Both the position numbers and the translations under genes were made by a program. A stretch of DNA of 32,000 nt from Candidatus Pelagibacter sp. HTCC7211 (GTDB taxonomy: Bacteria; Pseudomonadota; Alphaproteobacteria; Pelagibacterales; Pelagibacteraceae). Below the pieces are notes generated by a model, which saw only the letters and a program-made list of their open reading frames with translations, did not search any database and was not told where the DNA came from. Where the stretch lies: assembly GCF_000155895.1 (NCBI RefSeq), contig NZ_DS995298.1, positions 720,001-752,000 on the forward strand. Reading direction: 5' to 3'. This document shows positions 1,421-8,154 of the stretch, one piece after another (within the stretch, counting starts at the first letter, position 1; every line of letters begins with the position of its first letter).

Positions 1421-2293
1421 ATGACAACAAATAAATTAGCAATAATTGGTGGAAGTGGTTTATATGATATTGTAGAATTTAAAGAAAGAGAATTACTTGA
1501 TTTAAATACTCCATGGGGAAAACCATCTGATCAAATTTTAAAGACAATTTATAAGAATAAAGAAGTTTATTTTTTGCCTAGACATGGAAGAGGGCATTAT
1601 GTTTCACCAACAAATATAAATTTTAGAGCAAACATAGATGCACTTAAACAATTAGGTGTTACAGATATTGTTTCAGTATCTGCAGTTGGATCATTGCGAG
1701 AGGATTTACCACCAGGAAAATTTGTAATTGTAGATCAATTTATCGATAGAACATTTTCTAGAATAAAAACTTTCTTTGATGATGAAATTGTTGCTCATGT
1801 TTCTATGGCCCATCCAACTTCAAACGGATTAATGAATGCATGCGAAGAAGCTATAAAAAAATCCAATATAGATTATCAGAAAAATGGCACTTACGTTGTA
1901 ATGGAAGGTCCTCAATTTTCAACCTTGGCTGAGTCTAATTTATATAGGTCGTGGAAGGCAGATGTGATCGGAATGACTAATATGCCAGAGGCAAAATTAG
2001 CAAGAGAAGCAGAAATTAGATACGCATCAGTCTCTATGGTTACAGATTATGATTGCTGGCACCCTGATCACACAAATGTTGATGTTCAGCAAGTGATTAA
2101 AGTTTTATTGAGTAATGCAGAAAAGGCAAAAGATATGATTAAAAATTTAATAAATAATTTTGAAAATTATATTGATCCAAATGATCCAGCTATTAATTGT
2201 TTAGATGTAGCAATTATTACAGCACCAGAAAAAAGAACTCAGAAAACTATAGATAAACTTAAAACAGTTGCTGGAAGAGTTTTAAACAAATGA
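1421..2293 (+). CDS. mtnP: S-methyl-5'-thioadenosine phosphorylase
   Basis: 290 aa. It has the MTAP/PNP-family motifs AIIGGSGLYD, PWGKPSD, FLPRHGRGH and DVIGMTNMPEAKLAREAEI. It overlaps mtnA by 4 bp (ATGA). Confidence 0.9.
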   Translation: MTTNKLAIIGGSGLYDIVEFKERELLDLNTPWGKPSDQILKTIYKNKEVYFLPRHGRGHYVSPTNINFRANIDALKQLGVTDIVSVSAVGSLREDLPPGKFVIVDQFIDRTFSRIKTFFDDEIVAHVSMAHPTSNGLMNACEEAIKKSNIDYQKNGTYVVMEGPQFSTLAESNLYRSWKADVIGMTNMPEAKLAREAEIRYASVSMVTDYDCWHPDHTNVDVQQVIKVLLSNAEKAKDMIKNLINNFENYIDPNDPAINCLDVAIITAPEKRTQKTIDKLKTVAGRVLNK

Positions 2294-3360
2294 AAATTGC
2301 AGGTAAAGAATATAAAACAATTTGGTATGAAAAAAATGTTGTTAAAATAATTGACCAAACCAAACTTCCACATCACTTTAAAATTACAGAACTCAAAACA
2401 GTTAAAGACTCAATTAATGCAATAAAAGAAATGAAGGTAAGAGGGGCTCCTTTAATAGGTGCAACAGCAGCTTATGGAATAGCTTTGGCAATTCAAGAAA
2501 ATAATGACCTTGATTTTATAAAAAAAAGTGCAGAAGAATTAATTCAATCAAGACCTACAGCAATAAATTTAAAATGGGCAGTTGATCGTACGATGAAAAA
2601 TTTATCAGGAATTAATAGTGATCAACTTTTAAATATTACTTTAAATGAAGCTAAAGAAATTTGTGATGAAGATGAAAAATTTTGTGAAAATATAGGTATT
2701 AATGGATTAAAAATAGTTGAGGAAATTTATAACAAAAAAAAAGATACAGTTAATATTTTAACTCATTGTAATGCAGGTTGGCTTGCAACTATTAATTGGG
2801 GCACAGCAACGTCACCAATATATCATGCTCATAAAAAAGGAATTCCAGTTCATATATGGGTTGACGAAACAAGACCAAGGAATCAAGGTGCAAATTTAAC
2901 TTCATATGAATTAAACGAAGAAGAAATTCCAAATACCATAATTGCTGATAACACAGGTGGAATTTTAATGCAAAGAGGTGAGGTGGATATGTGTATTGTT
3001 GGAACTGATAGAACTTTATTTAATGGCGATGTTTGTAATAAAATAGGCACCTATTTAAAAGCATTAGCTGCTTATGATAACAATGTGCCTTTTTATGTTG
3101 CGCTACCAAGTTCAACAATTGATTGGGATATTAAGGATGCAAAAAATATCCCCATTGAAGAGAGAAATTCCGAAGAGTTATCCCACATAGAGGGCATTGA
3201 TGAAAATAATCAAATTAAAAAAGTTTTGATATATCCAAACAAAAGCAGAGCAATGAATTTAGCATTTGATGTAACACCTGCAAAATATGTAACTGGCTTA
3301 ATTACTGAGAGAGGAATTTGTGAAGCTTCTCGTGATGGTTTAAAAAAATTATTTAAATGA
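2290..3360 (+). CDS. mtnA: S-methyl-5-thioribose-1-phosphate isomerase
   Basis: 356 aa of the eIF-2B alpha/beta/delta-like family. Motifs: IIDQTKLPH, VRGAPLIGATAAYG, THCNAG, VDETRPRNQG, GTDR. It overlaps both neighbouring genes by 4 bp. Confidence 0.9.
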   Translation: MKIAGKEYKTIWYEKNVVKIIDQTKLPHHFKITELKTVKDSINAIKEMKVRGAPLIGATAAYGIALAIQENNDLDFIKKSAEELIQSRPTAINLKWAVDRTMKNLSGINSDQLLNITLNEAKEICDEDEKFCENIGINGLKIVEEIYNKKKDTVNILTHCNAGWLATINWGTATSPIYHAHKKGIPVHIWVDETRPRNQGANLTSYELNEEEIPNTIIADNTGGILMQRGEVDMCIVGTDRTLFNGDVCNKIGTYLKALAAYDNNVPFYVALPSSTIDWDIKDAKNIPIEERNSEELSHIEGIDENNQIKKVLIYPNKSRAMNLAFDVTPAKYVTGLITERGICEASRDGLKKLFK

Positions 3361-3989
3361 AAAAATTTAAATCTGAAATAATTAAATATTCAAAGATGCT
3401 GAATAAAAAAAAACTTTCAGCATTAAGATCTGGTAATATTTCTCTTAGATATAAGGAAGGTTTTTTAATAACTCCATCAGGAAAAAAATACTCATCTTTA
3501 AAAGATAAGGATATTGTTTTTGTTTCGCTGGATGGAATTTATGATAAAAAAAAAGGCACTCCATCGTCTGAATGGAAGTTTCATCAAGATATTTATATTA
3601 ACAAAAAAGAAGCAAAAGCAATTGTTCATGCACATTCAACAAATGCTACCGCGGTTTCTACTCACAAGAGAGGCATACCGCCTTTCCATTACATGGTAGC
3701 AATGGCAGGAGGCCACAATATCAAATGTGCAAAATATGCAACCTTTGGAACCAGAAAATTGTCAAATAATATTTTAAAAGCTTTAAAAGACCGTAAAGCT
3801 TGTTTAATTGCAAATCACGGACAGATTGCATTTGAAGAAAATTTATCAAAAGCTTTTGAGTTAGCGGAAGAGGTTGAAAATATATCGCTTCAGTATATAA
3901 CGAGCCTAAAATTGGGTATACCTAAAATTCTTTCAGTTAAAGAAATGAAAAAAGTTTTATCCAAGGCAAAGAATTATAAAAAAGGATAA
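3357..3989 (+). CDS. class II (zinc) aldolase/adducin-family protein, FucA-like; candidate 5-methylthioribulose-1-phosphate aldolase (Ald2-type) rather than the MtnB dehydratase
   Basis: 210 aa. From memory of E. coli FucA, it is near-collinear: SGNISLR, PSSEWKFH (Glu73 position), VHAHS (two zinc-binding His), PPFHYM (Tyr113 position), YATFGTRKLS, NHGQIA (third His). It is the third gene of an overlapping mtnP-mtnA-X operon. Confidence 0.8.
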   Translation: MKKFKSEIIKYSKMLNKKKLSALRSGNISLRYKEGFLITPSGKKYSSLKDKDIVFVSLDGIYDKKKGTPSSEWKFHQDIYINKKEAKAIVHAHSTNATAVSTHKRGIPPFHYMVAMAGGHNIKCAKYATFGTRKLSNNILKALKDRKACLIANHGQIAFEENLSKAFELAEEVENISLQYITSLKLGIPKILSVKEMKKVLSKAKNYKKG

Positions 3990-3993
3990 AAAA

Positions 3994-5034
3994 ATGACTA
4001 AAGTTGGAGAGCATATAACTCTTGACATTATTGGCACAACTAAAGAGTACGATCCTTCCGTATTTGAAAAAGTTATTCATGATATTGCAAAAGCTGCAGA
4101 TGTTACAATTCTAAATATTTCAAAATATAAATTTGAACCTCAAGGTTTTACAATTCTTGCTTTGTTAGCTGAAAGCCATATTAGTTTTCATACTTTTCCA
4201 GAAAAAGGAATTATTAGTTTTGATTTCTTTACATGTGGCAAGGTTAACCCATCAATTGCAATTGAAATTATAAAAAAAGAATTTGAACATACAAGAATAG
4301 TTAAAAAAGAATTTAATAGGGACACTAAATCTCTTTATCATGATATCTATAGTTCACCAGGATTACAAAAATCATATGTTGTTAATGATGTGCTTGAAGA
4401 TTTTAAGTCAAAAGTTGGTCAACACATTGAAATTTTAGATTTAGAGCAATTTGGAAAATCTTTATTTATTGATGGAGAAATTCAAGTAGCCGCCACTGAT
4501 GAACATTTGTATAGCTCAACTTTTGTAGGTGCAGGATTAGAATTAAATAAACAAAGTGAAAGAGCAGCTATTATTGGTGGTGGAGACGGTGGTGTCGCAA
4601 GAGAATGTATATCAAAAGATTTTAGTTTTATAGATTGGTATGAATTAGATCCTGAAGTTGTTGATGTTTGTAATAAACATCTTGGAGATATTGGAAAAAA
4701 AGCTACTGAAAAAAATTCTGTTAAATGTGTGTGGGGTGATGCTTTTGAAAGTATAAAGTCAGTGGAAGATGATACATACGATCATATTTTTGTAGATCTT
4801 AATGATGATCAGTTTTGCATTGATCTTGCAGCCAAAAATATGGACTCAATGATTAGAATTTTAAAACCTAAAGGGGTAATCACTGCTCAGGTTGGAAGCC
4901 AGGATAAAAAACCTAAACAAGTTGATAGTTGGTTGAATGTATTTAACCATCACTTTGGAAACACTAAATTATCAAGAGTTTATATCCCTAGTTTTGATTG
5001 CTCTTGGAATTTTTCATCATCAATAAATCATTAA
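3994..5034 (+). CDS. fusion protein: N-terminal pyruvoyl-dependent S-adenosylmethionine decarboxylase (SpeH/SpeD class 1B), C-terminal spermidine-synthase-like aminopropyltransferase
   Basis: 346 aa. Residues about 1-110 contain LLAESHISFHTFPEKGIISFDFFTCG, with the ES self-cleavage site and proenzyme core. Residues about 115-346 contain FGKSLFIDGEIQVAATDEHLY, IIGGGDGGVAREC and YELDPEVVDV, the aminopropyltransferase/dcSAM-binding motifs. The gene starts 4 bp after the preceding stop codon. Confidence 0.8.
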   Translation: MTKVGEHITLDIIGTTKEYDPSVFEKVIHDIAKAADVTILNISKYKFEPQGFTILALLAESHISFHTFPEKGIISFDFFTCGKVNPSIAIEIIKKEFEHTRIVKKEFNRDTKSLYHDIYSSPGLQKSYVVNDVLEDFKSKVGQHIEILDLEQFGKSLFIDGEIQVAATDEHLYSSTFVGAGLELNKQSERAAIIGGGDGGVARECISKDFSFIDWYELDPEVVDVCNKHLGDIGKKATEKNSVKCVWGDAFESIKSVEDDTYDHIFVDLNDDQFCIDLAAKNMDSMIRILKPKGVITAQVGSQDKKPKQVDSWLNVFNHHFGNTKLSRVYIPSFDCSWNFSSSINH

Positions 5035-5093
5035 TTTTTCTTTTTTAATTATTAAATTTGTGAAATAATCACTCCAATTTAAAGGAGAAAATA

Positions 5094-5945
5094 ATGAATA
5101 TATTCAAAAAAACTATTTTAACAGTTCTTGCTTCTTTATTAGTCATCGGAAATGTTTACGCTGATAAAATAAAGATTGGAACTGAAGGTGCTTATCCTCC
5201 ATGGAACTCTAAAGATGCTTCTGGCAATCTTATTGGTTTTGAGGTTGAGCTAGCTCAAGAACTTTGTGCAATCATGAAAGCTGAGTGTACTATCGTTGAG
5301 CAAGACTGGGATGGAATGATTCCAGCTTTATTAATGAGAAAGTTTGATGCGATTATGGCTGGAATGTCAATTACAGCTGAAAGACAAAAAACAATTACAT
5401 TTTCACAAGGTTATGCAGATGAAGTTGCATCACTTGCAGTTATGAAAGGGTCAAGCTTAGAAGGAATGGATACACCAGAAGGTGTAAACCTAACTTTAGG
5501 TGGATCTTCAGTAAAAAAAGCTTTGAAAACTATCACAGGAGCACTTGCGGGAAAAACTGTTTGTACTCAAACAGGAACAATTCACCAAAACTTTTTAGAA
5601 TCTGGTGATGTTGGTAAAGTGAATGTTAGAACTTACAAAACACAAGATGAAGTAAACTTAGATTTAACATCTGGAAGATGTGATGTTGCTTTAGCTGCGG
5701 CGGTTGCATTTACAGACTATGCTGACAAATCAGGTAAACCAGTTGTATTAGTTGGACCAACTTTTTCAGGTGGAGCATTTGGTAATGGTGTTGGAGTTGG
5801 AATTAGACAAGGTGGTGATGATGCGATTGGTAAAAGAGACGCTAAACTTCTAAAAGATTTCAACAAAGCAATTGATAAAGCTAGAAAAAAAGGAATTATT
5901 AGCAAACTTGCTATTAAGCACTTTGGTTTCGATGCTTCTATGTAA
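5094..5945 (+). CDS. ABC transporter periplasmic substrate-binding protein, polar amino acid/opine family (HisJ/ArgT/OccT-like)
   Basis: 283 aa. It has an N-terminal signal peptide (LTVLASLLVIGNVYA/DK) and the family-3 binding-protein motifs GTEGAYPPW, GFEVELAQELC and DAIMAGMSIT.ER. A strong AAGGAG ribosome-binding site lies upstream. Confidence 0.85.
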   Translation: MNIFKKTILTVLASLLVIGNVYADKIKIGTEGAYPPWNSKDASGNLIGFEVELAQELCAIMKAECTIVEQDWDGMIPALLMRKFDAIMAGMSITAERQKTITFSQGYADEVASLAVMKGSSLEGMDTPEGVNLTLGGSSVKKALKTITGALAGKTVCTQTGTIHQNFLESGDVGKVNVRTYKTQDEVNLDLTSGRCDVALAAAVAFTDYADKSGKPVVLVGPTFSGGAFGNGVGVGIRQGGDDAIGKRDAKLLKDFNKAIDKARKKGIISKLAIKHFGFDASM

Positions 5946-5957
5946 TTAATTTCAGAT

Positions 5958-5984
5958 TTGGCGACTATAATATATAGTCGCCAA
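5958..5984 (+). promoter_or_regulatory. perfect 12-bp stem hairpin between the binding-protein gene and the first permease gene
   Basis: TTGGCGACTATA-ATA-TATAGTCGCCAA. There is no following U-tract. The stem ends 5 nt before the permease ATG (5990), which has no visible Shine-Dalgarno sequence. Confidence 0.5.
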
Positions 5985-5989
5985 TCTAT

Positions 5990-6682
5990 ATGGAACTTCT
6001 CGCATTTGGCAAAACAGGTTGGGGTGATGAATTATTTTACGCAACCTTAATGACTATTGCTGTATCTGTTTCAGCAATGTTAGTTGGATTTGTCTTTGCA
6101 TTAATATTTACACCCTTAAAATTATCTAAATATAAATCGTTAAATTTAATCGGAAATTTTTATACGACAGTTATTCGTGGTGTTCCTGAACTTTTAGTAA
6201 TTTACCTTTTCTTTTTTGGAGGAAGTGGAGCAATTATGTATGTGGCCTCAATTTTTGGTTATTATGAATATATTGAAATTAATGCGTTTATTACTGGTTC
6301 ATTAGCAATTGGTATCATTTCTGGCGCTTATTCAACTGAAGTTTTTCGTGGAGCGATACAATCAATAGATAAAGGTCAGTTTGAAGCTGCAAAAGTTCTT
6401 GGTGTCAGTAAATTTGCTCAGTTTTATAAAATAATTTTACCTCAAATGCTAAGACTAGCAATTCCAAATTTGAGTAACGTTTGGCAAATTACTTTAAAAG
6501 ACACATCTCTTATCTCAGTAACAGGATTAGTTGAGATTATGAGACAATCTTATATTGCAGCAGGTTCTACTAGAGATCCATTATTCTTTTACTCATTTGC
6601 TGCTGTTTTATATTTATCGCTAACTTATTTAAGCATGAAACTGATCAATAAATTAGAAGTAAAATATAGTAGGGGTTATTAA
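5990..6682 (+). CDS. ABC transporter permease, polar amino acid family (HisQ/OccQ-like)
   Basis: 230 aa, multi-pass membrane protein. It has an EAA-loop-like segment, DKGQFEAAKVLGVSKFAQFYKIILPQ. It overlaps the next gene by 1 nt (TAATG). Confidence 0.85.
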   Translation: MELLAFGKTGWGDELFYATLMTIAVSVSAMLVGFVFALIFTPLKLSKYKSLNLIGNFYTTVIRGVPELLVIYLFFFGGSGAIMYVASIFGYYEYIEINAFITGSLAIGIISGAYSTEVFRGAIQSIDKGQFEAAKVLGVSKFAQFYKIILPQMLRLAIPNLSNVWQITLKDTSLISVTGLVEIMRQSYIAAGSTRDPLFFYSFAAVLYLSLTYLSMKLINKLEVKYSRGY

Positions 6683-7356
6683 TGGATTTTGATTTAATGG
6701 TTACTAGTTTTCCAAAATTGCTAAGTGCTACTGTAATTACATTAAAACTTTTATCTGTATCTTTAATCGCAGGGATGTTCCTAGGTTTATTTTTTGCTGT
6801 TTTAAGAATGAACAATAATATTTTTATTAATAAATTTGCTTATGGATATTCTTATGTTTTTAGAGGAACACCTCTTTTAGTTCAAATTTTTATTATTTAT
6901 TTTGGTTTAGGACAAATAGAATATCTAAGATCTACATTTATATGGGTAATATTAAAAGAGCCATATTGGTGCGCAATCATAGCTTTTGCTTTAAATACTG
7001 GTGCTTATACATCTGAGATATTAAGGTCAGCATTTCAAACAATTAAACCAGGTATAATAGAAGCAGGCAAAAGTCTGGGAATTTCAAACAAAATTATTTT
7101 TTATAAAATTCAGATACCAATAGCAATTAGACAATCTTTACCCGCTTATGGTAACGAGATAATTTTAATGATGAAAGGAACCTCTTTAGCAAGCACAGTA
7201 ACTTTAATGGACCTAACAGGTGTAGCTAAATATATCATTTCAACAACATTTAAACCAATTGAAGTTTTTATTGTTGCTGGGGGAATTTATTTATTTATGA
7301 CTTTTTTAATTCACAATTTAATTAAATATTTAGAAAAGAAGTATAGTTTTCAATAG
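6682..7356 (+). CDS. ABC transporter permease, polar amino acid family (HisM/OccM-like)
   Basis: 224 aa, multi-pass membrane protein. EAA-loop segment: IEAGKSLGISNKIIFYKIQIPIAIRQSLP. Confidence 0.85.
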   Translation: MDFDLMVTSFPKLLSATVITLKLLSVSLIAGMFLGLFFAVLRMNNNIFINKFAYGYSYVFRGTPLLVQIFIIYFGLGQIEYLRSTFIWVILKEPYWCAIIAFALNTGAYTSEILRSAFQTIKPGIIEAGKSLGISNKIIFYKIQIPIAIRQSLPAYGNEIILMMKGTSLASTVTLMDLTGVAKYIISTTFKPIEVFIVAGGIYLFMTFLIHNLIKYLEKKYSFQ

Positions 7357-7365
7357 AAATTAAAT

Positions 7366-8154
7366 ATGTATCTTTCAAAAAAACAAGTTGATGATTACCA
7401 AAAATTTGGAGTGATTGTTGTTAAAGATGTTTTCAAAAATTGGATAGAACCATTAAAAAAAGGATTTAAAAAAGTTTTAGAAAAACCCAGTAAACATGGA
7501 AGGGAAAATGTTACTGATAATAAAGGAAGATTCTTTGAAGATTATTGTAATTGGGAAAGGGTAGAGGAATTTAAAGATTGTATTTTTAATTCACCTGCTG
7601 CACAAATTTTTACTGAAGCTACATTATCTAATTCATCACAAATATTTCACGATCATATCTTTATTAAAGAGCCAGGTACCACAAAAGAAACCCCATGGCA
7701 TCAAGATATGCCATATTATTGTGTAGATGGAAATGATACAGGTAGTTTTTGGATACCTTTAGATAATGTAGATAGAGAAAATAATCTGAAGTTAATTTTA
7801 GGATCACATAAATGGAAAAAATTAATTAGACCAACAAAATGGTCAAATAATCAATCTTGGTACAAGCAAGATAGCATATTTATGCAATTGCCAAATAATG
7901 TAGAATTCAAAGATGATATATTAATACCAGAATTGAATTTGGGAGATGCTGTGCTATTTAATTTTAAAATCGTTCATGGATCGAGTGGTAATAAAACTTT
8001 AAAATCTAGAAGAGCTTTTTCAATGAGATTTATTGGTGATGATGTAAGATTTATTGATAGAGGTGGGCCCACATCTCCACCATTTGATGGTATCAATTTA
8101 AAAACAGGTGAAATGATGAGAGAGGATTGGTTTCCTAAAGTTTTTAATAACTAG
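7366..8154 (+). CDS. phytanoyl-CoA dioxygenase (PhyH) family Fe(II)/2-oxoglutarate-dependent oxygenase
   Basis: 262 aa. It has an N-terminal YQKFGVIVVKDVF-type motif, an HxD iron ligand pair in PWHQDMPYY, a distal His in FKIVHGSSGN, and an Arg in RRAFSMRF. It starts 9 bp after the permease stop. Confidence 0.75.
   Translation: MYLSKKQVDDYQKFGVIVVKDVFKNWIEPLKKGFKKVLEKPSKHGRENVTDNKGRFFEDYCNWERVEEFKDCIFNSPAAQIFTEATLSNSSQIFHDHIFIKEPGTTKETPWHQDMPYYCVDGNDTGSFWIPLDNVDRENNLKLILGSHKWKKLIRPTKWSNNQSWYKQDSIFMQLPNNVEFKDDILIPELNLGDAVLFNFKIVHGSSGNKTLKSRRAFSMRFIGDDVRFIDRGGPTSPPFDGINLKTGEMMREDWFPKVFNN

Follow-up and report, generated by a model that had tools for sequence, protein, structure and literature searches.

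The locus described here raises the question of whether one gene of Candidatus Pelagibacter sp. HTCC7211 encodes both an S-adenosylmethionine decarboxylase (AdoMetDC) and an aminopropyltransferase within a single polypeptide and, if so, which amines its product would accept. The gene lies in a window of 32,000 nt (positions 720,001 to 752,000 of contig NZ_DS995298.1), this being the whole stretch of DNA that was analysed, and coordinates are given as positions in the window. The HTCC7211 genome is a single contig of 1,456,888 bp with 29.03% GC, in which PhnJ is present; among the seven strains compared by Grote et al. (2012), phnGHIJKLMN (C-P lyase) was found only in HTCC7211. Based on its length and these genome features, the gene product is most probably the HTCC7211 protein WP_008544956 itself. 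The fusion enzyme is already known and functionally characterised, and is not new.

An unbroken speD-speE reading frame

The speD-speE fusion gene (3994..5034, + strand) runs from ATG to TAA with no internal stops and encodes 346 aa, AdoMetDC being followed by aminopropyltransferase. An AAGGA sequence is present 8 nt 5′ of the ATG, within the final codons of the preceding gene. Direct translation places AESH at 4168-4179, GGGDGG at 4576-4593, and DLNDD at 4795-4809, and the junction of the two domains (residues ~110-118, ~4321-4347) is open in frame in HTCC7211. As both domains exceed their Pfam cut-offs within this one unbroken ORF, the proposal made from the sequence-only reading, that the gene encodes a single-polypeptide fusion, is confirmed.

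Within the N-terminal part, the class 1B AdoMetDC domain (residues 7-109, 4012..4320, + strand) was identified by AdoMet_dc (PF02675; E 1e-27, 97 bits against a cut-off of 25) and by the equivalog for Bacillus-type class 1B AdoMetDC (TIGR03330; 97.3 against a cut-off of 75.65). The ESH of the Thermotoga maritima AdoMetDC is the known cleavage site, and E60-S61-H62 aligns with it (1tlu/1vr7) and with the ESH of the Aquifex aeolicus enzyme (2iii). The alignment to T. maritima AdoMetDC predicts a beta chain of residues 1-60 (3994..4173, + strand), and in the translation AESHISFHT the codon for Ser61, the predicted pyruvoyl precursor at the E60|S61 site, is at 4174..4176 (+ strand). In the alignment to both of these AdoMetDCs, H66 corresponds to the His of HTFPE/HTWPE and C81 to the Cys of FTCG, the catalytic residues numbered His68 and Cys83 in T. 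maritima. H66 is present in all 33 of the fused homologues aligned and C81 in 31 of them. The N-terminal part had been described as a complete class 1B proenzyme, and the family matches and aligned residues bear this out. No gene of the genome other than the fusion gene exceeds the PF02675 cut-off, and the same is true of PF01564, the catalytic domain of the transferase.

If speD and speE were two separate genes that a mistake in sequencing or assembly had merged, the appearance would be the same, and a stop codon or frameshift near 4310-4330 in related genomes would then be anticipated. None was seen. The 346-aa frame is intact in 79 of 80 species-level SAR11 loci, the remaining locus being L061, and ESHISFHTFPE, GGGDGG, and DLNDDQ are invariant across these 79. 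In an order-wide scan of 301 genomes, the fusion was matched in 218 of the 240 genomes of the same family, and all of the matches listed are free of internal stops and extend over residues 1-346, or in a few cases 2-346. About 1,700 database clusters share the architecture, and the published HTCC7211 and HTCC1062 proteins are likewise 346 aa long. The artefact is therefore rejected, the chance of it being practically negligible.

Matches to the fusion query were not obtained throughout the order. Within the same family, one genus had none (six genomes, which are 96-99% complete), and of the 60 genomes in a second family just four gave matches, at E ~1e-4, none of which is a real match. A metagenomic relative (P0003), which is 94% identical, was called as 441 aa and has an additional Aldolase_II Pfam match. 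Such a call would point either to read-through or a wrongly placed start, by which the aldolase was joined to the fusion, or to a rare triple fusion.

When 1.84 billion cluster representatives were searched, full-length fused relatives were returned in dozens of clusters, at 25-52% identity. Invariant in 33 fused homologues are S61, H62, H66, E70, D77, R109, G195, G197, D219, and D268. In the sequence-only reading, such fusions were taken to have been reported in only a few bacterial lineages, a view that these clusters do not support; nor does the first report of the fusions, which describes them in diverse phyla, including Delftia and Syntrophus (Green et al., 2011, Mol Microbiol 81:1109). 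Fused proteins from a delta-proteobacterium and from Ca. Krumholzibacteria have been described since (PMC12803844).

The aminopropyltransferase and its amine acceptors

The remainder of the protein consists of a beta-hairpin (oligomerisation) N-domain at residues 119-165 (4348..4488, + strand), matching Spermine_synt_N (PF17284; E 2.6e-07, 30.9 bits against a cut-off of 22.1), and a catalytic Rossmann-like domain at residues 170-340 (4501..5013, + strand), matching Spermine_synth (PF01564; E 3.3e-23, 82.7 bits against 22.9). Together with the alignments and fold matches, these support the earlier assignment of a spermidine-synthase fold with GGGDGG. The SpeE equivalogs were matched well below their cut-offs (TIGR00417, 94.4 against 249.55; NF002010, 120.7 against 260), and because these scores are so far under the cut-offs, the transferase part is a divergent aminopropyltransferase. 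The closest solved aminopropyltransferases by sequence are the spermidine synthase of Plasmodium falciparum and the thermospermine synthase of Medicago truncatula, both at E ~1e-16.

When the protein was aligned to characterised synthases, GGGDGG (residues 195-200, 4576..4593, + strand), the dcSAM-binding motif, was found to align, together with E217, D219, D249, and D268, with the solved spermidine and thermospermine synthases. The D-S/T-S/T-D-P putrescine loop of canonical SpeE is absent and DLNDD is in its place (residues 268-272, 4795..4809, + strand). The aligned counterparts of DLNDD are DSSDP (P. falciparum spermidine synthase) and DLADP (M. truncatula thermospermine synthase), so that D268 is at the position of the catalytic Asp, with D271 at that of the second conserved Asp. 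That the loop diverges from the canonical one was therefore correctly noted from the sequence alone, but it is not an isolated oddity. A D-L loop is present in 27 of the 33 fused homologues, D-L-T being the commonest form, and for this reason DLNDD is a SAR11 lineage variant of the D-L-T/x-D loop that is usual in fused enzymes.

According to a published motif rule (PMC11107197), hhhhGGGD(G/C)G is of the spermine-synthase type, whereas hhhhGGGEGA with an Asp at motif 3 is of the thermospermine-synthase type. The AAIIGGGDGG of the Pelagibacter protein, with E217, has the spermine-synthase pattern and not that of the ACL5-type thermospermine synthases. Its D-L-x-D amine loop, in turn, looks like that of the thermospermine-synthase type. 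A mixture of a spermine-type dcSAM side and a thermospermine-type loop would fit the dual product activity that has been published.

This activity was demonstrated by Li et al. (2024, JBC; PMC11107197), who expressed the 346-aa fusions of HTCC7211 (WP_008544956) and HTCC1062 (WP_011282223), all of the activity data being from E. coli hosts. Both fusions complement an E. coli speD deletion, with spermidine restored, so that the AdoMetDC domain is functional. In an E. coli speE deletion, spermidine is formed first and is followed by spermine together with thermospermine; from 1,3-diaminopropane, the fusions make large amounts of norspermidine (PMC11107197). The proteins were accordingly named Spd/Spm/Tspm synthases fused to functional AdoMetDC (PMC11107197). 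The amine acceptor, which had seemed not to be obvious, is thus established by the published data as putrescine, spermidine, and 1,3-diaminopropane. Because spermidine, spermine, thermospermine, and norspermidine are all made, the aminopropyltransferase of the fusion is promiscuous.

Neighbouring genes and diamine supply

The fusion gene is the last of four co-directional genes. Upstream are mtnP (1421-2293, + strand), mtnA (2290-3360, + strand), and a FucA-type class II aldolase gene (3357-3989, + strand), all identified with NCBIfam. Each of the first two overlaps the next gene by 4 bp, and 4 nt separate the aldolase gene from the fusion gene. Divergent from these is apt (852-1379, − strand), encoding adenine phosphoribosyltransferase (NF002634, 213 bits against a cut-off of 170). 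The cluster pairs an enzyme that releases MTA with enzymes that dismantle it, and apt recycles the adenine that is freed by MtnP. The product of 3357-3989 scores 209 bits as an L-fuculose-phosphate-aldolase type, the match to the MtnB dehydratase being weak and partial (65 bits, residues 15-105). On these scores, it would fit the aldolase of a DHAP shunt better than canonical methionine salvage; a literature search for a link between a DHAP shunt aldolase and Pelagibacter found none. Scans around the cluster revealed no excess of promoters (22 sites, with 26.3 expected from shuffled sequence) or of terminators (4, with 2.2 expected from shuffled sequence), and neither type of site is taken as evidence.

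The MTA cassette varies among SAR11. In ~53 of 80 loci it consists of mtnP, mtnA, and the small aldolase gene, as here (1421-3989), and in ~10 of the 80 there is instead of the small aldolase a convergent gene for a 677-aa fusion of Aldolase_II and short-chain dehydrogenase, possibly an aldolase joined to an aldehyde reductase. In some SAR11 loci a separate aldolase occurs with DUF1015, a PLP enzyme, and an SDR, and in seven of the 80 a 174-aa PNP_UDP_1-like ORF is all that lies between apt and the fusion gene. Examples of cassette variants are at 3881-5914 (− strand) in locus L007, 1349-5915 in L037, and 5398-5922 in L003.

Downstream, at 5094-8154 (+ strand), is a Lys/Arg/Orn-type ABC unit with genes for a binding protein and two permeases and no ATPase gene, together with the next gene, which is weakly 2OG-Fe(II)-oxygenase-like. 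Of 80 SAR11 loci, 79-80 have the transporter genes 3′ of the fusion gene, whereas the upstream cassette is variable.

Elsewhere in the genome there are two genes of the ornithine/arginine-decarboxylase fold, two ureohydrolase genes, and one deoxyhypusine-synthase-like gene. One gene of each of these three types is present in a side-by-side group at 358884-361887 (− strand), outside the window, in a probable diamine and homospermidine cluster that is separate from the fusion gene. The decarboxylase-fold and ureohydrolase genes could supply diamine, in agreement with a published reconstruction (PMC8437039).

Proposed mechanism, predicted structure and comparison with known systems

The gene product is almost certainly the known SpeD-SpeE fusion of Pelagibacter, which would act as follows. 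Based on the mechanism of the family, and as implied by the complementation of speD, the class 1B proenzyme would cleave itself at E60|S61, giving an alpha chain of residues 61-346 that begins with the pyruvoyl group formed from S61. What is left of the decarboxylase fold would be part of this chain along with the complete aminopropyltransferase, so that the pyruvoyl group and the transferase would stay joined after cleavage, and by analogy with other members of the family the 60-residue beta chain would remain bound non-covalently. The decarboxylase converts SAM to dcSAM, the aminopropyl group of which is moved to an amine by the C-terminal domain; D268 would serve as the catalytic base, and MTA is released. 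Disposal of the MTA would fall to MtnP, MtnA, and the aldolase, which are encoded directly upstream, and the protein is predicted to form a homodimer through the decarboxylase sheet and the transferase N-domain.

A structure was modelled with AF2 from the 33 fused homologues (mean pLDDT 93.6). The top full-length PDB match of the model is human spermine synthase (3c6k; TM 0.72, ~358 columns), and spermidine synthases match its C-terminal 240 residues with an rmsd of ~2 Å. The predicted homodimer scored 0.65, the best of three controls scoring 0.00; among proteins of solved structure, 20 of 30 same-chain pairs attain this value, as does 1 of 23 single chains, and the score may only mirror likeness, because dimers of class 1B AdoMetDC, of human spermine synthase, and of spermidine synthases have already been solved. 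Between prediction runs, at least 92% of the contacts agree, with a partner pLDDT of at least 87. The predicted interface is formed by the decarboxylase beta-sheet (residues 2-13, 40-81, and 101-109), the junction and hairpin (110-133 and 150-153), and residues 303-304 and 330-337. According to this model, the fusion protein probably works as a symmetric homodimer.

The resemblance to human spermine synthase invites a different reading of the N-domain, as a dead, structural AdoMetDC-like module that serves in dimerisation while dcSAM comes from elsewhere. The human protein on which the model superposes best has lost N-domain decarboxylase function (PMC12803844), and much of the predicted dimer interface is indeed supplied by the N-domain. 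Nevertheless, S61, H62, H66, E70, and C81 are present and conserved in the Pelagibacter protein, which passes the TIGR03330 cut-off, no other AdoMetDC that could supply the dcSAM was found in the genome by the PF02675 search, and a speD deletion is complemented by both of the published Pelagibacter fusions, HTCC7211 and HTCC1062 (PMC11107197). A purely structural N-domain is rejected on these grounds as extremely improbable. The direction of the reaction can also be questioned, since Noell et al. (2021) hypothesised that in SAR11 cells the enzyme is also, or mainly, reversed, breaking down imported spermidine and norspermidine. Putrescine or Dap rises in HTCC7211 that has been fed spermidine or norspermidine, and the canonical spermidine-catabolic genes were not found (PMC8437039). 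The same authors state, however, that reversibility of SpeE is not known from other organisms, and they grant Dys2, which is deoxyhypusine-synthase-like, as an alternative (PMC8437039); a gene of the DS family is present in this genome. As the fused domain generates dcSAM and the adjoining cluster disposes of MTA, both of which point to biosynthesis, reversal is considered to be unlikely.

For the biosynthetic fusion enzyme, two further proposals can be made jointly, and only tentatively, as they are held to be rather unlikely: that the covalent link and the predicted dimer would allow dcSAM to be handed over without passing through the cytoplasm, and that the SAR11-specific DLNDD combined with the spermine-type motif would allow both ends of spermidine to be aminopropylated at a single active site. 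Channelling of dcSAM, which had been suggested from the sequence alone, is a hypothesis only.

SAR11 are among the most abundant bacteria of the ocean and have a minimal genome. One protein of 346 aa stands here for speD, speE, and dedicated spermine and thermospermine synthases, an instance of multifunctionality in a streamlined genome. These points are already in the literature (Green et al., 2011; Li et al., 2024; the 2025 JBC paper, PMC12803844), to which the gene-cluster context, the predicted homodimer, and the fold match to human spermine synthase are added here.

Compared with known systems, the protein has the same length and domain order as the published HTCC7211 (WP_008544956) and HTCC1062 (WP_011282223) fusions, from which there is probably no difference. 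The class 1B AdoMetDCs of T. maritima (1tlu/1vr7) and A. aeolicus (2iii) were matched with E-values of 1e-11 to 1e-14; these are stand-alone proteins of ~130 aa, whereas in Pelagibacter the alpha chain runs on into the transferase. The fusions of other phyla (Delftia, Syntrophus, the delta-proteobacterium, and Ca. Krumholzibacteria) have the same domain order, usually with a D-L-T/x loop, and S61, H62, H66, E70, D219, and D268 are also invariant in those from outside SAR11. In many of the other-phyla fusions, however, the loop is DLTMHPE or DLTDP and the protein is extended at its C-terminus, while the SAR11 fusion has DLNDD and its C-terminus comes directly after the catalytic domain. With the thermospermine synthase of M. 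truncatula (6bq2, ACL5 type; E 2.3e-16), DLADP and DLNDD have D-L-x-D in common, but the ACL5-type enzymes have GGGEGA with an Asp where the Pelagibacter fusion has GGGDGG with E217.

Human spermine synthase (3c6k/3c6m) has the same layout of AdoMetDC-like N-domain, beta-hairpin, and Rossmann-like domain, and dimerises through its N-domain. It is 18% identical to the SAR11 fusion and its N-domain is without decarboxylase function (PMC12803844); in the SAR11 fusion, in contrast, no catalytic residue has been lost, and its products include both thermospermine and spermine. It has been argued that a bacterial fusion of this kind is the ancestor of animal spermine synthase (PMC12803844), and the fold match to 3c6k fits this proposed bacterial-fusion origin.
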